Source of the DNA: a virus
Lineage: Duplodnaviria; Heunggongvirae; Uroviricota; Caudoviricetes
Length of the DNA: 19,876 bases
Strand: one strand, 5' to 3'
Virus record (IMG/VR): IMGVR_UViG_641736225_000038
The position numbers and the translations under genes were made by a program. Within the stretch, counting starts at the first letter, position 1; the number at the start of each line of letters is the position of its first letter. Shown piece after piece: positions 1 to 19,876 of the stretch. The notes beneath the pieces were generated by a model. The model worked only from the letters and a program-made list of their open reading frames with translations, had not been told where the DNA came from and made no database searches.

Positions 1-438
1 GGCCTGAACTGCCGGAGGCGTAGGCCATTCAATATCTGGCGCACCGGAAGTATCGACCAGCTCCAGTGCGTCCAGATAATCCAGCCACAAATTATATTGC
101 GTCAGTTCGTCACCTTTCAGACGACCAATAGCCGCTTTACCGGGCCATTGCTTACTGTTCATGTATTCGTTGGCCTGGTTAATTAGTAGCTGTCTTTCTG
201 ATTCAGTAATTTCAATAAGCTCTTCATGCGTGGGTGGAGGAATATCTGCCCACGCAGGCAGCCCATCATCTCCGGCAATACGGATTTTTCCTTGTGGCGG
301 TTCAGCCATAAACTCACTGATAATATTTTGATTTACTTCCTTAGCGTCTGATAAATCCCATCCCTCTGATTTATATTTATCAATCATATCCACAGGGAAA
401 AAAGCATTATGCCTTGCGCTATAAACATATTCGTCCAT
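1..438 (-). CDS. tfa: Phage tail fibre assembly protein (Tfa / Mu U-like); 3' end runs off the window start
   Basis: Minus-strand frame opens with ATG at 438..436 (MDEYVYSARHNAFFPVDMIDKYKSEGWDL...) and is still open at position 1, where it reads ...LVDTSGAPDIEWPTPPAVQA, the conserved C-terminal motif of tail fibre assembly proteins. Lies directly downstream of a tail-fibre C-terminal ORF on the same strand. Not in the ORF track because it is truncated by the window edge. Confidence 0.8.
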   Translation of the reverse strand, partial: MDEYVYSARHNAFFPVDMIDKYKSEGWDLSDAKEVNQNIISEFMAEPPQGKIRIAGDDGLPAWADIPPPTHEELIEITESERQLLINQANEYMNSKQWPGKAAIGRLKGDELTQYNLWLDYLDALELVDTSGAPDIEWPTPPAVQA

Positions 439-458
439 ATAAATCACCCTGAATAAAA

Positions 459-872
459 TTACTCACCAACAGCCCACCAACTGTAATTCATCGATACCGT
501 GTCGCTGGTTGATGACGTTCTGTAAGCAGAATTAAAGCCGGTTAACGTTGGGCCTTCTGCAGTCATCACGAACCCTCGCCCAGCGCCTAAAGGCGCACCG
601 CCATCACCAGAATGAGTAAGCATGGCGCAGTCCGCTTTTTTGGGGAAAGGGATGCTGAATGTAATTCTCATTGTTTGCGTCGATAATGTCGGCGTAACCG
701 CACCACGACCATATTGCAGGATTTTCCCGTTGGGTAATTTCATCCATCCATTACCACTGGCAAAAGAGGCCATGTCCGGTATCTGATTTTCCCCTGTCCC
801 CACATCCCGTTTTGCCGCTTCTCCCAAACCAACGTTTATGAAAATGCAGAAATAACGAGCAAATGGCATCAT
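459..872 (-). CDS. Tail-fibre C-terminal variable cassette (Sv-type segment of an invertible tail-fibre region); lacks its own N-terminal constant part in this orientation
   Basis: 137-aa minus-strand ORF, Gly/Ser/Thr-rich, ending ...SMNYSWWAVGE, immediately upstream of tfa on the same strand (tail fibre then tfa order) and abutting an invertase gene on the opposite strand, as in Mu G, P1 C and e14 P segments. The first codons (872 to about 845) lie outside the putative crossover site and are probably not part of the expressed fibre. Confidence 0.6.
   Translation of the reverse strand: MMPFARYFCIFINVGLGEAAKRDVGTGENQIPDMASFASGNGWMKLPNGKILQYGRGAVTPTLSTQTMRITFSIPFPKKADCAMLTHSGDGGAPLGAGRGFVMTAEGPTLTGFNSAYRTSSTSDTVSMNYSWWAVGE
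819..844. other. Candidate invertase crossover site (gix/hix-like 26-bp site)
   Basis: TTCTCCCAAACC-AA-CGTTTATGAAAA: two imperfect 12-bp half-sites around a central AA, with the AAACC / GTTT core arrangement recalled for Hin/Gin sites (hixL TTCTTGAAAACC AA GGTTTTTGATAA). Located 55 bp upstream of the invertase start, at the edge of the tail-fibre cassette. Confidence 0.4.
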
Positions 873-898
873 TCCTGCTTTTGTCAGGGAGATCTACC

Positions 899-1453
899 AT
901 GCTTATTGGCTATGTACGTGTGTCAACAAATGACCAGAACACAGATCTACAACGTAATGCGCTGAACTGTGCAGGATGCGAGCTGATTTTTGAAGACAAG
1001 ATAAGCGGTACAAAGTCCGAAAGGCCGGGACTGAAAAAACTGCTCAGGACATTATCGGCAGGTGACACTCTGGTTGTCTGGAAACTGGATCGGCTGGGGC
1101 GCAGTATGCGGCATCTGGTCATTCTGGTTGAGGAGTTGCGCGAACGTGGCGTTAATTTTCGCAGCCTGACGGATGCTATTGATACCAGTACCCCAATGGG
1201 GCGCTTTTTCTTTCATGTGATGGGGGCCCTGGCTGAAATGGAACGAGAACTGATTGTTGAACGAACAAAAGCTGGACTGGAAGCTGCTCGCGCACAGGGA
1301 CGAATTGGTGGACGTCGTCCCAAACTTACACCAGAACAATGGGCGCAGGCCGGACGATTAATTGCAGCAGGAATTCCTCGCCAGAAGGTAGCGATCATCT
1401 ATGATGTTGGTGTATCGACACTGTATAAGAAGTTTCCGGCCGGAGATAAATGA
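899..1453 (+). CDS. pin: Serine DNA invertase, Hin/Gin/Cin/Pin family (184 aa)
   Basis: Translation from ATG 899: MLIGYVRVSTNDQNTDLQ...VVWKLDRLGRSMRHL...FRSLTDAIDTSTPMGRFFFHVMGALAEMERELIVERT...GRIGGRRPKL, with catalytic serine context (YVRVST) and C-terminal HTH typical of small serine recombinases. The 12 upstream codons in the ORF track (863-898) are probably untranslated. Adjacent to the tail-fibre/tfa cassettes. Confidence 0.9.
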   Translation: MLIGYVRVSTNDQNTDLQRNALNCAGCELIFEDKISGTKSERPGLKKLLRTLSAGDTLVVWKLDRLGRSMRHLVILVEELRERGVNFRSLTDAIDTSTPMGRFFFHVMGALAEMERELIVERTKAGLEAARAQGRIGGRRPKLTPEQWAQAGRLIAAGIPRQKVAIIYDVGVSTLYKKFPAGDK

Positions 1454-1510
1454 AACCGTAGCACGTCGTATGCAAGATCGTGCTGCGGTTTATGCTTACC
1501 ACTTGAAGAT

Positions 1511-2380
<870 letters not shown>

Positions 2381-2463
2381 CTAACCCTTTGAATTTACAT
2401 AGCGCAAAAAGATACCTTTCCTCATAATGTGAGCTAATTTTATGTTTCGTTTGATGATCGGGT

Positions 2464-2525
2464 CGGTCTCGAAAACCGGAGTAGGGGCAACTCTACCGGG
2501 GGTTCAAATCCCCCTCTCTCCGCCA
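2464..2525 (+). other. 3' fragment (62 nt) of tRNA-Ser(CGA), serU-type; attachment-site core, not a functional tRNA
   Basis: CGGTCTCGAAAACCGGAGTAGGGGCAACTCTACCGGGGGTTCAAATCCCCCTCTCTCCGCCA contains anticodon loop CTCGAAA (anticodon CGA), long variable arm, T-arm and 3' acceptor strand. The 5' acceptor strand and D-arm are replaced by only partly similar sequence (2440-2463), as expected at a phage/host att junction. Confidence 0.75.
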
Positions 2526-3107
2526 CTTTATCAATGACTTATCTCCCGACTTCCCGTCTTGCTTTTCCTAAACAGAACAATCGTAGAATATTCTTGAAGG
2601 GTTAGATCGTCACTGTTTTCTGTTCGATACTGTGACATTCAGCACTTGATTCGCTATGGATCTGACAGGAAGGTTTTGAGCGAAAATCTGCAGTTATTCA
2701 GTCGTTTTCTTATCGGTCACCATTATTCTTTTAGACATTGATCCTACAAAGCTGCCGCAAAGTTGGTGGTGGGAACTGAAGTTGCGTAGAGAAGGGGTCA
2801 ATACCCGGAGGCAAACATGGGCTGGCAAAAGTGTAGCGGTATTAGGCGCAGCTATTTAGCCTAGTTATGTTTTATGAAAACTTGATATCATATAAGTGTC
2901 TTACTTATTGGCTGTAAATAAGTTTTTCCTAAGGAATTGTTTCTTGAGTATCATTTGTAACTGTAACGGAATTTATAATCCTTTGCTTTATTGTTACGGT
3001 ATTTTTTATCACACCCTATTTTTAGTGGTTTTTTATACTGAAGTTTGGCAAAGTGAACTTTATATACATATACTTCATCCTGGTTTCAGTTAAATTGGGG
3101 GGATGAT

Positions 3108-3851
3108 ATGGCAACTACATGTTCAGTTATATTGATTTTGGAGTCCTTTGATGTTTATTTCGGAAAAGAGAGTGTGTTTCTGGAGAGAGGTTCATCTGTA
3201 CTTGTCGACTCTAGCTCTAGAGATTTTTTCCTGACATATCCTGAAAGAGTGATAGTGGCGGATTTTGGCGCTGAGTTTATTAGTCGCTATTTGAAAGCTA
3301 ATAACTTAAGGGATATTTCTGATTGTAGGGAATATCCATCTTATTTAAAAATAAACTTTGCTGACTTCAGTTTAATTAAAGGATTAATTAGTTGGGCTAA
3401 TCACTGTGCTGAATACATAGAAATTTTTGATGAGTCTATTGCTTTTACATGTCTCTCTGCATTTTCTTCTGAAAAACAATTTGGAGTATTTCTGTTTGGA
3501 TGTTTGAAAAGCACAGGGGCTAAAGTTAAAACGATTATTCATACGGATTTATCTGCACCATGGCGTCTTAAGGATATATCATCAAGATTATATCTCAGCG
3601 AAAGTTTACTAAAGAGGAAATTGAAAGAAGAGGGGGTATCATTCAGTAAGATCATACTTGATGAGAGGATGCAAATGGCTGAATATTTACTCAGCACTCG
3701 TTGTTATCCTATTAGTAAAGTAGCTAAGGTCTGTGGTTATGCCAGTGTCTCATACTTTACTTATGTATTTAGACGTTATTTTGGTGTTTCTCCAAGTCAA
3801 TACTCTCAGAGGAGTTCAGAAAGTAAAATTCTTACTCACCAGGGAATCTGA
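3108..3851 (+). CDS. AraC/XylS-family transcriptional regulator (247 aa)
   Basis: C-terminal ~100 aa show the two-HTH AraC signature (...ISSRLYLSESLLKRKLKEEGVSFSKIILDERMQMAEYLL...ISKVAKVCGYASVSYFTYVFRRYFGVSPSQY). AT-rich gene; G-rich stretch before the ATG. Confidence 0.75.
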   Translation: MATTCSVILILESFDVYFGKESVFLERGSSVLVDSSSRDFFLTYPERVIVADFGAEFISRYLKANNLRDISDCREYPSYLKINFADFSLIKGLISWANHCAEYIEIFDESIAFTCLSAFSSEKQFGVFLFGCLKSTGAKVKTIIHTDLSAPWRLKDISSRLYLSESLLKRKLKEEGVSFSKIILDERMQMAEYLLSTRCYPISKVAKVCGYASVSYFTYVFRRYFGVSPSQYSQRSSESKILTHQGI

Positions 3852-3855
3852 TCAT

Positions 3856-4330
3856 TGTTCTTGCCCCCTTATTTCCAGACAGGGGGGGTATCTTAAGTTA
3901 ACGTTACCCGCTGACGTCGATATTCTCGCGGAGAGCGATAACCCAACGCACTGTGCGGATGGTTTTCATTGTAATGTTCGATCGCCACTGCAAGATTATG
4001 CAATGCCGTTCTTACATTCGGTTTCGGCATGAACGCGATGTAGTCTTCCTTCATCGTTTTCACGAACCTTTCTGCAATTCCATTACTCTGAGGACTGCTG
4101 ATTGCCGTTGTGCAGGGCTCCAGATTCAACTCTCTGGCGAACTGCCGTGTTTCATGCGCTCTATACGCTGAACCGTTATCTGTCAGCCACTGGATGGACT
4201 GTTCCGGTACTTTATCGCCAAAGCGTTTTTCTATCGCTCCTAACATGACATCCTGCACTGTCGCTTTATCGTAACCTCCCGTGCTTGCGGCCCAGTCTAT
4301 GGCTTCACGATCGCAACAGTCCAGGGCGAT
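3856..4330 (-). mobile_element. Truncated IS3-family (IS2-group-like) insertion sequence remnant: one terminal inverted repeat plus 3' part of transposase orfB
   Basis: Minus strand near 3856-3880 reads ...TGTCTGGAAATAAGGGGGCAA..., resembling the IS2 right end as recalled. The orfB-like frame is open from 4330 down to the stop at 3893. No orfA and no second IR. The inner boundary is approximate; decayed homology may extend to about 4400. Confidence 0.6.
3893..4330 (-). pseudogene. IS2-like transposase OrfB, C-terminal fragment
   Basis: Translation ...[93 protein letters not shown]...[19 protein letters not shown] matches the C-terminal DDE-domain region of IS2 InsD-type transposases (recalled, roughly 60-70% identical). 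An in-frame TGA at 4331-4333 ends the homologous frame upstream. Confidence 0.65.
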
Positions 4331-4605
4331 TCATCTGGGCCAATCCTTGCTCATAACAGGCATTCACTTCAGTCATGGCAGAAAGGTATGCATGCTGGAG
4401 AAGTCGTGAAAGAAAAGAAGACTGCTGCGCCGTTTGTCGTCACGTTTATCTTCATTGGCTATGCAAGTCGTAATACAAGGTGGGACAAAACTGAGACACA
4501 TAAGGCCTCGCAATGGCTTGCAAGGCTTTACATGTTTTGATGTGGTGGGACGTGTGAGCGCAGTGTTGATGGGGTAATGCTTTGAATTAGAAGCGGATTC
4601 TTATA

Positions 4606-4651
4606 ATTCGTAATGCGAAGGTCGTAGGTTCGACTCCTATTATCGGCACCA
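4606..4651 (+). other. 3' fragment (46 nt) of tRNA-Thr (thrW-type); left attachment core of the P4-like element
   Basis: ATTCGTAATGCGAAGGTCGTAGGTTCGACTCCTATTATCGGCACCA matches the 3' part of tRNA-Thr(CGU) from the anticodon loop to CCA. Upstream sequence does not match the tRNA 5' half. A P4-type integrase gene starts 160 bp downstream in the same orientation. Confidence 0.75.
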
Positions 4652-4813
4652 TCTCAACTTCCTCAAACGTCCGTATTAGTCCATAAAATCTCTGATTTAT
4701 AACATTTTTTATTCTTTTAAGTCCATAGTAGTCCGTAACCATCCAGTAGAATCCGGTACTGAATGTGTATAGGATTGTGTATATGTTCCTGTTCGGTCTG
4801 GATTCCTATACAC

Positions 4814-5995
4814 ATGCCTTTAAACGATATGCAGATTCGCCGCGCTAAGCCTGAAGCTAAAGCCTATACATTTGGAGATGGGCTAGGGTTGTCATTACTT
4901 ATAGAACCTAATGGAAGCAAGAGTTGGCGGTTCCGCTATCGCTATGCCGGCAAACCCAAAATGATCTCGCTTGGTGTTTACCCAACGATCACCCTTGCCG
5001 ATGCTCGTTCCCGTCGTGATGAAGCTCGAAAACTTGTGGCAGAAGGAAAGAACCCTAGTGAGGTTCGAAAAGAGCAAAAGCTAGCTATGCAAACAGAGTC
5101 AGAGAACGCCTTCGAAAAGATAGCCAGAGAGTGGCATCAACTTAAATCTGCTAAATGGTCGGCGGGATATGCATCAGACATCATGGAAGCGTTTAAGAAC
5201 GACATTTTTCCTTATGTCGGAACAAGGCCTGTGGGAGAGATTAAACCGCTAGAGCTGCTGAACGTTCTGCGTAAAATTGAGAAACGTGGTGCGTTGGAGA
5301 AAATGCGCAAAGTGCGGCAGCGTTGCTCCGAAGTGTTTCGCTACGCAATTGCAACGGGTAGGGCGGAGTACAATCCTGCGGCTGATCTCTCCAGCGCTCT
5401 CGAAGTACACCAATCCAATCATTTCCCATTCCTAAAAGCTGATGAGATACCTGATTTTCTACGTGCCTTAGAGGGTTACTCCGGGAGTAAGCTTGTCCAG
5501 ATAGCCACGAAATTACTGATGATTACGGGTGTGAGAACCATCGAATTACGCGCGGCATTATGGCAAGAATTTGATCTGGATAACGCTATTTGGGAAATTC
5601 CTGCTGAAAGGATGAAAATGCGTAGGCCACATCTTGTGCCCTTATCATCTCAAGCGGTAGATTTACTCAATGAACTCAAGATCATGACAGGGAACTATCG
5701 TTATGTTTTTCCAGGGCGGAACGATCCGAATAGGCCAATGAGCGAAGCGAGTATAAATCAAGCCATTAAGCGTATTGGGTATGGAGGAAAAGTCACTGGA
5801 CATGGTTTTCGTCATACCCTTTCTACAATCCTGCATGAGCAAGGTTTTGAGAGTGCTTGGATTGAAATCCAGTTGGCTCATGTAGATAAAAATTCTATTA
5901 GGGGGACTTATAACCATGCTCAATATTTTAGTGGAAGGAAGTCTATGATGGACTGGTACAGTAATTTGATATTTGAAAGACTAAAAAGGAGTTAA
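4814..5995 (+). CDS. int: P4-type tyrosine integrase (393 aa)
   Basis: Start at ATG 4814: MPLNDMQIRRAKPEAKAYTFGDGLGLSLLIEPNGSKSWRFRYRYAGKPKMISLGVYP... (characteristic P4-integrase N-terminal domain); C-terminal catalytic region with ...HGFRHT... and ...HVDKNSIRGTYNHAQY (tyrosine recombinase R-H-R-Y context). The track's upstream extension (4763) is unlikely. Confidence 0.9.
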   Translation: MPLNDMQIRRAKPEAKAYTFGDGLGLSLLIEPNGSKSWRFRYRYAGKPKMISLGVYPTITLADARSRRDEARKLVAEGKNPSEVRKEQKLAMQTESENAFEKIAREWHQLKSAKWSAGYASDIMEAFKNDIFPYVGTRPVGEIKPLELLNVLRKIEKRGALEKMRKVRQRCSEVFRYAIATGRAEYNPAADLSSALEVHQSNHFPFLKADEIPDFLRALEGYSGSKLVQIATKLLMITGVRTIELRAALWQEFDLDNAIWEIPAERMKMRRPHLVPLSSQAVDLLNELKIMTGNYRYVFPGRNDPNRPMSEASINQAIKRIGYGGKVTGHGFRHTLSTILHEQGFESAWIEIQLAHVDKNSIRGTYNHAQYFSGRKSMMDWYSNLIFERLKRS

Positions 5996-7895: not shown

Positions 7896-7937
7896 TGAAC
7901 CGCCCCGGGTTTCCTGGAGAGTGTTTTATCTGTGAAC

Positions 7938-8828
7938 TCAGGCTGCCAGATCATCGTTTCCGATGGAAGCATAATAAGCTTTTTCTGCTTCTGCCGGAGG
8001 AGTATGGCCCAGCCTTCCCAGCAATCGTCGATTGTTATACCAGTCCACCCACGTTAGTGTGGCCAGTTCCACTTCTGCACGGTTTTTCCAGCTCTTACGG
8101 TGTATTACCTCCGCTTTGTAAAGACCATTGATGCTCTCAGCCATCGCGTTGTCATACGAGTCGCCTGTACTCCCTGTTGATGCCAGTAATCCGGCTTCTT
8201 TTAGTCGCTCCGTATAGGCCAGTGACACATACTGAGAGCCTTTATCGCTGTGATGGATGGTGCCAGACGGACGACGGGCCCACAACGCCTGCTCCAGCGC
8301 ATCCAGCACGAATGTCGTTTCCATAGACGATGAGACCCGCCACCCCACGATGTATCCGGCAAACACATCAATGATAAACGCCACATAGACGAAGCCCTGC
8401 CATGTGCTGACGTAAGTAAAATCAGCCACCCACAGCTGGTCAGGTCGTTCTGCCACGAACTGACGGTTTACGCGGTCGCCTGCGGCAACGGCTTTCCGGC
8501 TGATGGTCGTACGGACCTTTTTACCCCGGAGAACACCGGCAAGTCCCATAACCGCCATGAGACGTGCCACTGTACATCTGGCCACCCTGATTCCTTCCCG
8601 TAACAACTGACGCCAGACTTTACGCACACCGTACACCTGATGATTTTCATCGTATACGCGCTGTATCTCTCTCTTCAGCCAGTCGTCGTGCTGCGCACGG
8701 GCACTGCGTTTATCCGGATGATGTCGCTGTTGCTGACAATGGTAATACGTTGACGGGGCAATATGCAGTTCGCTGCATACCGGTCCGACCCCGTACTGCT
8801 CACGCAGCTTATCCAGCAGTGGCATCAT
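7938..8828 (-). CDS. IS3-family transposase OrfB (DDE domain), IS629-type
   Basis: 296-aa ORF ...[50 protein letters not shown]...[11 protein letters not shown]...[21 protein letters not shown]...: integrase-core catalytic triad context. Overlaps orfA by 4 nt, as for frameshift-fused IS3 transposases. Confidence 0.9.
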
Positions 8829-18622: not shown

Positions 18623-18831
18623 TCTTATCAATCGTTAATTTCATATCTTTTTGAATATTAATGAAAAAAAACACAATGAGTAGTATGAACAGTTTTCCCC
18701 CAAAAAAAGTTTTTTCTGCCTTGAGAATGCGCGGAAAGCGAACGCCTTCACCAATGTGTATAGGGGTGTGTGTAGTTTAAATCTTCTATTTTAATTTATG
18801 TATTAAAATCATTGTGTTGGTGGCGATTATT

Positions 18832-18850
18832 GGTTCCTATTATCGCACCA
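18832..18850 (+). other. Degenerate copy of the tRNA-Thr 3' end; candidate decayed right attachment site of the P4-like element
   Basis: GGTTCCTATTATCGCACCA versus GGTTCGACTCCTATTATCGGCACCA at 4627-4651: identical except for a 4-nt and a 1-nt deletion, in the same orientation as the left core. Confidence 0.35.
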
Positions 18851-18976
18851 TTTAAATCAAGTAGTTACCCCATATTTAAATACACCACGTTTCCTCCTGT
18901 GCCGCATTTGTGCCATTGTAACCCTGGCAATTAATCAAAATACTGTTCTGACATCAGGCAATGCAGGTGCAGACAT

Positions 18977-19876
18977 TTAAGCCAATTGCTGCCGCCATTC
19001 CTTAACGTGGTCAATCAGAGCGCGGAGCTTTGGTGCAATATTGCGACGCTGTGGGAAATACAGATAGAAGCCCGGAAATTGTGGAAGAAAGTCATCAAGC
19101 AGAGATACAAGCTTACCGCTTTCAATATACGGCCTGAAAGTTTCCTGAGTGGCAATTGTTATTCCTCCGCCGGCAAGAGCCAGCCTCAACATCAGACGCA
19201 GATCATTAGTCGTAATCTGCGGTTCAATCGCAAGGTCGAAAGCTCTCCCGTTTTCTTCAAATGGCCAGCGATAAGGCGCAACCTCCGGGGACTGACGCCA
19301 GCCGATACACTTATGATTCACAAGTTCACGCGGATGAACAGGTGTGCTGTTGGCTGCGAGATAGGAGGGAGAGGCAACGACCATTTCACGCTGCCTGCCG
19401 GTAAGGGGCACAGCAATCATGTCTTTTTCAATGACCTCTCCGAGCCTTACGCCAGCATCGTAACCTGCGGCCACGATATCGAATTCCTCATCCGTGACAA
19501 CAATATCAAGCGTAACGGCTGGATTGGCTGCTGCAAACGAAGCGATTAGCGGACCTGAAAGAAATTCTTCAGCTATTGACGTCACCGCGATTCTGAGAAG
19601 TCCGCGTGGCACATGGTCAGAAACCATCTCTTCGAACGCTGCCTCAATACCGGATAAAGGTAATGACAGCGATTTATGCAGCCGTTCTCCCGCTTCTGTC
19701 AAATTAACTGAGCGCGTGGTCCGCATTACAAGCATTGTCCCGAATGCATCTTCAAGGCGTCTTATTCCCTGACTGACCGCTGAACGGGTAACGCCCAGCC
19801 GTGCGGCGGCTTTACTAAAATTACTCTCTTCTGCTACCGCGATAAAAATGGGTAAAAGATTAAGATCGATTTTCAT
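18977..19876 (-). CDS. LysR-family transcriptional regulator (299 aa)
   Basis: N-terminal HTH MKIDLNLLPIFIAVAEESNFSKAAARLGVTRSAVSQGIRRLEDAFGTMLVMRTTRSVNLTEAG followed by a substrate-binding-type domain of typical LysR length. The ATG is the last codon of the window, so an upstream extension cannot be excluded. Confidence 0.85.
   Translation of the reverse strand: MKIDLNLLPIFIAVAEESNFSKAAARLGVTRSAVSQGIRRLEDAFGTMLVMRTTRSVNLTEAGERLHKSLSLPLSGIEAAFEEMVSDHVPRGLLRIAVTSIAEEFLSGPLIASFAAANPAVTLDIVVTDEEFDIVAAGYDAGVRLGEVIEKDMIAVPLTGRQREMVVASPSYLAANSTPVHPRELVNHKCIGWRQSPEVAPYRWPFEENGRAFDLAIEPQITTNDLRLMLRLALAGGGITIATQETFRPYIESGKLVSLLDDFLPQFPGFYLYFPQRRNIAPKLRALIDHVKEWRQQLA

Follow-up and report, generated by a model that had tools for sequence, protein, structure and literature searches.

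How do the 3' ends of two different tRNA genes, each of the kind used as a phage attachment (att) site, come to lie on either side of a short spacer in the same stretch of DNA? The question is raised by the virus record IMGVR_UViG_641736225_000038, a stretch of 19,876 nucleotides (hereafter the window), in which an initial annotation had placed a spacer at positions 2526-4605 between a tRNA-Ser and a tRNA-Thr att core. These limits coincide exactly with the gap between two tRNA gene fragments. The first, serU' (2464-2525, plus strand), comprises the last 62 nt of tRNA-Ser(CGA), beginning at the anticodon stem and ending with CCA, and matches exactly positions 29-90 of serU of Escherichia coli K-12. 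The second, thrW' (4606-4651, plus strand), is the 3' 46 nt of tRNA-Thr(CGU) and matches exactly positions 31-76 of thrW. Because both matches are exact, over 62 and 46 nt within 19.9 kb, they cannot be chance resemblances. The thrW core indeed lacks its 5' half, as had been pointed out, and the serU piece is likewise a 3' fragment only, its 5' 28 nt being gone. Neither of them possesses the full cloverleaf, with acceptor stem and 5' half, of a functional tRNA; ARAGORN reports no complete tRNA gene in the whole window, and the Rfam matches of serU' (tRNA-Sec, 27.5 bits, and a plastid 3'UTR family, 40.9 bits) are both under threshold and merely mirror the tRNA fragment. The interval very probably represents the right-hand end of the defective lambda-like prophage Sp1, up to its junction with the P4-like prophage Sp2 at the thrW locus, with serU' being a fossil right attachment site (attR) that is carried, together with host DNA, as cargo.

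The window is DNA of E. coli O157:H7, 100% identical to that of strain EDL933 apart from an extra copy of the insertion sequence (IS) IS629 at positions ~7896-9201. Its positions 2300-4800 are found in one place, at a coverage of at least 80%, in 323 complete genomes that include EDL933 and Sakai, and the 30 matches listed all display full coverage and 100% identity. The same DNA is known in Sakai and EDL933 as Sp1 (also CP-933H or O-island 8, a lambda-like remnant) and Sp2 (P4-like); as compared with the Sp1/Sp2 of EDL933, the strain studied here has the additional IS629 in Sp2. The Sakai annotation assigns positions 300042-310627 to the lambda-like Sp1 and 310628-323514 to the P4-like Sp2, and the limit between them maps to window positions 4634/4635, within thrW'. 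In both EDL933 and Sakai, the left part of the locus comprises proBA, an intact thrW, an integrase pseudogene on the minus strand, cI, cro, cII, and O/P remnants. The middle part follows with the tail fibres, pin, a GIY-YIG gene, serU', an AraC-family gene, an IS remnant, and thrW', and the right part with a P4-type integrase, an ABC-three-component cluster, delta, psu, sid, the primase, a degenerate thrW end, and yagP. The literature treats the Sp1-Sp2 pair as a compound prophage located at thrW (PMC8190617), and both members are reported to be degraded and not to circularise (PMC2669165). The region is a long-annotated compound prophage, ordinary and largely known. No description of a fossil serU' inside Sp1 was found in the EDL933 and Sakai annotations or in the literature cited here, and its linkage to the regulator gene patE, discussed below, makes a modest addition to the known Sp1-Sp2 locus.

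The position of thrW' is accounted for by tandem integration, one of the explanations that had been offered for the spacer. An intact thrW is located 10.5 kb to the left of thrW', outside the window (locus L001, 11691-11766), and Sp1 and Sp2 stand side by side in the Sakai annotation, thrW' being at once the attR core of Sp1 and the left attachment site (attL) core of Sp2. The segment that precedes it (4330-4605, plus strand) is phage DNA adjoining a phage attachment site (attP), of which residues 4481-4605 form the P arm of an SfIV-type attP. Positions 4349-4540 resemble (87.5% identity) what phage 21 and lambda-like phages have to the left of attP, and positions 4481-4652 are 98.3% identical to a stretch of 172 bp that lies between gtrA and int in SfIV. 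At the other end of Sp1, the core and int of SfIV are 99.2% identical to the 3' part of thrW and the adjacent int pseudogene of EDL933. The SfIV attP, split at its core, reproduces both ends of Sp1, which identifies Sp1 as the remnant of an integrated SfIV-type phage with thrW' as its attR. The serotype-converting Shigella phage SfIV and its SfV-like relatives, which use thrW, are 98-99% identical to the Sp1 ends over the attP arm, core, and integrase. They differ in what stands beside attP, where SfIV carries gtrA, gtrB, and gtrIV and Sp1 has the block made up of serU', its flank, and patE; moreover, Sp1 is devoid of most of the SfIV genome. A near-complete SfV-like prophage, with a myovirus-type tail and a single thrW-type integrase, occupies thrW in the pig strain NJS001, and its right end exhibits the fossil block, tandemly duplicated, and then thrW' and an Sp2-type integrase. 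Sp1 is a deleted derivative of such an NJS001-like SfV-type prophage. Of note, the unit repeated in NJS001 (locus L003, 9582-12254) consists of patE and an IS remnant of the IS2 group (window positions 2886-4337, 1452 bp), and the second patE is frameshifted.

Each of the two elements also occupies thrW by itself. In 118 complete genomes, proA and an intact thrW are directly followed by the Sp2-type integrase, and Sp2 stands alone at an intact thrW in the O55:H7 strain DEC5A as well as in the O157:H7 strains 493/89, 2571, and F6321, which are among the 118. Regarding Sp1, the phi458 record displays an Sp1-type arm and thrW' core joined straight to the DNA of window positions 18835-19315 (96.9% identity), that is, to the native flank found here to the right of Sp2. 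The locus has therefore the layout of a tandem array: an intact tRNA gene is followed by 3' repeats, one of 46 nt, internal, and a degenerate one (17/18 nt) at 18833-18850, and each element has its own integrase, an SfIV-type int pseudogene after thrW and a P4-type int after thrW'. With an identical structure in many strains and an intact thrW upstream, the case reduces to ordinary tandem integration, the outcome that the initial annotation had attached to such a result. Sp2 would have been the first to settle at thrW, and an SfIV/SfV-like phage would then have integrated into the re-formed thrW. This order, Sp2 before Sp1, is probable because O55:H7 and some O157 strains have Sp2 alone beside their intact thrW.

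The serU fragment originates from another locus. On its left side, the 128 nt at positions 2336-2463 (plus strand) are the phage side, or P arm, of a serU-type attR. They are preceded by a LEM-3-like GIY-YIG gene (1511-2335, minus strand; Pfam PF22945), the last cargo gene of an SfV/e14-like prophage arm in the order tail fibres, pin, and GIY-YIG. On its right side, the 278 bp at positions 2526-2803 (plus strand) are chromosomal DNA of the serU-yodB spacer, that is, a host flank (B') captured with the att core. This flank exhibits 96-99% identity to the DNA located just downstream of serU in 5405 out of 5426 E. coli genomes, and alignment with K-12 assigns its counterpart to the serU-yodB spacer. 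A chimeric query, assembled from the GIY-YIG gene, the arm, serU', the flank, the ensuing K-12 flank, and yodB, was 100% covered with 97.5% identity at the native serU of strains MB15 and RMDEC332. In MB15, the matched attR closes, on the right, a complete prophage of 39 kb that resides at native serU and has its own integrase. This prophage comprises a lambdoid early region, a head of the HK97 type, a contractile tail, and tail fibres encoded on an invertible segment with pin. Since the chimeric query matches a real serU attR in these two strains, window positions 1-2803 reproduce the right end of a prophage resident at serU, including its attR and 278 bp of host flank. As expected of an attR, serU' has a core (61-62 nt) with prophage DNA on one side and the native flank on the other; it is devoid of a location at serU, of a flank running on into yodB, and of a partner attL or integrase. 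Indeed, it is located at the thrW locus, its flank halts after 278 bp at an IS fragment, and Sp1 contains no serU-type integrase. It is therefore a fossil rather than an active junction: serU' is a fossil attR and not an att site of the thrW locus. As a side observation, three hypothetical genes are located between serU (attL) and the integrase in MB15 (locus L014, 8183-10434); in this phage type, they occupy a second cargo position, across attP from the GIY-YIG gene.

Downstream of the host flank, the spacer contains two IS remnants with a regulator gene between them. The first remnant (2804-2858, plus strand), which adds a second IS fragment to the contents listed initially, is a terminal fragment of ~55 nt from an IS630-family element, with its inner, truncated side against the host flank; on plasmid pJNE23-001_1, the 3' end of a transposase gene of the IS630 family and the terminus of the element match it at 92.9%. 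The other one (3856-4329, minus strand) had been called a truncated IS2-like element. It is truncated and belongs to the IS3 family, but it is not IS2 itself; it is rather a relative from the IS2 group, with 70% identity both to nucleotides 857-1326 of IS2 and, at the amino acid level, to residues 148-288 of InsD. It retains rve and rve_3 domains, one IS2-like terminal repeat, and, of the transposase gene, 470 nt at the 3' end, ~860 nt being missing, and does not display the two repeats, the intact orfA and orfB, and the near-identity of a complete IS2. The Sakai annotation labels it 'ISEc48 Family: IS3 partial'. This remnant begins 4 nt past the stop codon of the regulator, and its last position, 4329, is the right limit of the module shared by every phage and prophage compared.

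The regulator (3108-3851, plus strand) comprises 247 residues and is the AT-rich AraC-family gene initially recognised in the spacer (GC content 0.32-0.36). Pfam analysis reports the two helix-turn-helix domains of AraC-type proteins, PF00165 (HTH_AraC, E = 1.3e-16) and PF12833 (HTH_18, E = 8.6e-16), and the gene is assigned to the AraC/XylS family. A review places patE (z0321) on O-island 8 (OI-8) and reports that PatE activates the acid-resistance genes gadE, gadBC, and hdeAB and represses LEE genes (PMC10877973). Since the gene at 3108-3851 is the sole AraC-family gene annotated in Sp1/CP-933H/O-island 8, it is most likely patE. Similar to PatE, PsrA, and PsrB of enterohaemorrhagic E. coli, it is an AT-rich AraC/XylS-family gene at a prophage end, and no difference in function was found. 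What is added here to the PatE system is the linkage of patE to a fossil serU attR and its presence in lambda-like phages at att-lambda. Within the block, patE is likely the only part that matters functionally, the att and IS pieces being scars.

The block is not restricted to O157:H7. Three free lambda-like phages, ev099, PhiR70_1, and mEp332, possess positions 2463-4329, which cover serU', the host flank, the IS630 end, the regulator, and the IS2-group remnant, at 99% identity. In ev099 the block separates the tail-fibre genes from attP-int; in PhiR70_1 it follows the tail-fibre genes, close to the end of the record. Among E. coli genomes, 542 contain positions 2527-3870 at a coverage of at least 80%. 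Prophages at att-lambda, by ybhB and bio, also possess it at 99% identity, in full in OkiPb01703 and shortened by IS1 in MS15047. All copies of the block have a common flank allele, with seven shared differences from the native flanks of K-12, Sakai, and MB15; it differs from the own serU flank of O157 at 11 of 278 positions, and the nearest native flank among the matches listed is 98.9% identical. One shared flank allele, unlike that of O157 itself, points to a single capture event in another lineage and not to a duplication within O157.

Specialised transducing phages such as lambda-bio and lambda-gal are formed by imprecise excision. The capture of the serU junction most likely followed a similar route: a serU prophage would have excised imprecisely, in a lambda-bio-like fashion, taking along attR and 278 bp of host flank. 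As in lambda-bio and lambda-gal, host DNA stands beside attR within a phage genome, by a hybrid att site and in a non-essential region near attP. The case differs from them in being a natural fossil, in viable phages with a different functional att-int module, from which the event is deduced, and in the size of the host piece, which is only 278 bp and ends within an IS fragment. The flank would then have become fused, upstream of patE, to the interior of an IS630-family element; it ends at 2803 and the true end of the element is at ~2858, which is consistent with an illegitimate joint at 2803. Block 2463-4329 now moves as cargo among temperate phages, between the tail-fibre genes and attP, and in the Sp1 lineage it has replaced the O-antigen (gtr) cargo found at this position in SfIV. 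At least one later exchange of the left arm took place within 2464-2673, which may have been by homologous recombination or by the action of an integrase on the fossil core.

Several points weigh against this account. The mechanism of capture is read from the structure of the block, and the correspondence of the regulator to patE/z0321 is likewise inferred. The order in which Sp2 precedes Sp1 is drawn from the distribution of the two elements among strains, some of which may instead have lost Sp1. Furthermore, the arrangement that should have preceded the capture was not found among the genomes searched: a chimera of K-12 mtfA-serU with positions 2526-3870 detects patE directly after an intact serU in none of the 5426 genomes (at least 80% coverage), and, with a chimera of positions 3600-4329 and the K-12 flank beyond the 278 bp, patE or the IS remnant is contiguous with the remainder of the serU-yodB spacer in none of the 5426 either. 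The regulator gene was either host DNA captured with the flank or already in the phage. Lastly, two types of phage arm, that of O157 and NJS001 and that of ev099, adjoin the same core and flank allele, which calls for one or more further exchanges in the core or close to it.

This last observation would be explained if a serU-specific phage or integrase had used the fossil core as a surrogate bacterial attachment site (attB), thereby swapping the left arm. Such secondary-site integration, which we regard as possible but doubtful, is a sub-mechanism that adds to the capture described above, the block being already in the cargo region of a thrW- or lambda-type phage. Three differing left arms meet the serU core at the same nucleotide, and the span in which the arm exchange falls, between 2464 and 2673, includes the core. 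Of the anticodon arm, the fossil still possesses the 3' stem, the complete loop, and all but one of the five bases of the 5' stem. A precedent that also counts in favour of this possibility is provided by Sp10 and Rac, for which integration into a resident prophage's attR has been documented (PMC2669165). However, homologous recombination in the ~210 nt shared with a native attR gives the same picture, and the NJS001 prophage has one integrase only. Comparison of the ev099-type arm with the arm of the attR of Sp14, the resident of serU in Sakai, yields no BLAST match at E < 1e-4; a global alignment of the two returns 95 identical columns out of 159, with the short common motifs ATTTATTCCAA, TTGATTTT, and GGAATATTCT, a resemblance that is no more than suggestive. 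Two of these three motifs, as well as their reverse complements, are absent from positions 2201-2470, which contain the O157-type arm.

If serU' were instead a plain attP core of a serU-integrating phage, no captured host junction would have to be assumed and the fragment would be phage DNA. The attP sites of phages normally hold the 3' part of the target tRNA gene, and serU' has a length compatible with a core reaching from the anticodon loop as far as the 3' end. In contrast, the 278 bp that follow match the DNA downstream of serU in nearly all E. coli, prophage-free strains included, and no serU-type integrase is adjacent. The serU locus of Sakai provides a further test of the core. It is located ~2.4 Mb away and is occupied by the lambda-like Sp14, in the order mtfA, serU, Sp14, attR, and yodB, and the Sp14 attR, beside yodB, has a core that covers the same part of the tRNA gene as serU' does. 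The functional serU of Sakai, which is the attL copy (locus L009, 47172-47261), exhibits two compensatory changes in its variable arm as compared with K-12, A to G and T to C, which evidently came from the attP core of Sp14. The displaced 3' part of the native Sakai serU now lies at the Sp14 attR beside yodB. As against the two changes of this phage-derived attL copy, the variable arm of serU' has the native bases, as expected of an attR. The attP-core explanation is therefore very improbable.

Another explanation is a chromosomal rearrangement in the O157 lineage, by which an IS-mediated fusion, translocation, or deletion would have joined a piece of serU to thrW. It has in its favour that IS fragments stand at two junctions (2804-2858 and 3856-4329) and that the serU flank is genuine chromosomal DNA. 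The serU locus of O157 is nonetheless intact, holding Sp14 with an attR of its own between mtfA and yodB, the fossil flank is another allele than the one found there, and the same allele and block recur in free phages and at att-lambda of unrelated strains. A rearrangement of this chromosome, as envisaged in the initial annotation, is thus highly improbable. What stands of the proposed IS-mediated joining of separate remnants is that the IS pieces mark mosaic junctions and that the serU piece derives from another locus; the join itself arose in phage genomes and not in this chromosome. An assembly artefact, in which contigs would have been falsely joined at tRNA or IS repeats, has nothing but the presence of such repeats to recommend it and can be dismissed, since the same 2.5-kb region recurs with an identical structure in 323 complete genomes, which were produced by many laboratories on many platforms and include the finished EDL933 and Sakai.

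To the right of thrW', where the Sp2 arm and integrase follow, Sp2 displays the features of a P4-like satellite, namely a P4-type integrase, the primase (alpha), psu, delta, and sid according to the EDL933 and Sakai annotations, and a C4 RNA. Its tyrosine integrase (4763-5995, plus strand, with an annotated start at 4814) comprises Arm-DNA-bind_3, Phage_int_M, and Phage_integrase domains. In positions 13829-14075, two Rfam matches exceed the respective gathering thresholds, C4 antisense RNA with 84 bits and isrK with 71.9 bits, while the c4-a1b1 target sites, with 44.6 bits, are slightly under the threshold of 46.7. To judge from these matches, the P4-type RNA immunity region of Sp2 looks intact. 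The right end of Sp2 is marked by the degenerate thrW 3' end GTTCCTATTATCGCACCA (18833-18850, plus strand), after which the native chromosome resumes; this copy was seen by direct reading of the sequence, and the end of Sp2 in Sakai maps to the same place. A 12-nt motif, AATGTGTATAGG, is present at both ends of Sp2, at 4762-4790 just upstream of the integrase gene and at 18752-18775 inside the right end, with GTGTAT-like repeats close to its copies, which may be putative arm-type binding sites of the P4-type integrase.

The IS629/IS1203 copy that distinguishes this strain from EDL933 (7896-9201; ALIL pseudoknot, 121.5 bits) interrupts an AAA-family ATPase gene of Sp2 that follows the ABC-three-component genes, and a candidate defence cluster of Sp2 is probably disrupted here. 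The spacer region is exposed to similar insertions. Some O157:H7 strains contain an additional IS1203/IS629 within 2300-4800, as in NZ_CP045863.1 (80276-84089), in which the match spans 3.8 kb in two pieces, and this segment is therefore an IS target in the population.

The mismatched tRNA fragments of this locus are thus a false lead that can be removed: they mark the known Sp1-Sp2 compound prophage and not a misassembly or a rearranged chromosome. For the calling of prophage boundaries, this means that a tRNA fragment located within a prophage is not necessarily a boundary, and the case is also of help in tracing how cargo genes were acquired. The added value of the locus is a clean natural case of a temperate phage that retains an old attachment junction together with 278 bp of host DNA. 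Within this block, patE moves between lambda-like and SfV-like phages that have different integration sites. A further idea, which we consider rather improbable, is that the fossil serU core, in which the anticodon stem-loop is almost complete, is more than a scar and serves phages as a portable surrogate attB, at which serU-specific integrases, such as that of the excisable Sp14 of the same cell, could integrate or exchange modules. If this were true, it would drive the insertion of prophages into prophages and the spread of patE between phage types.

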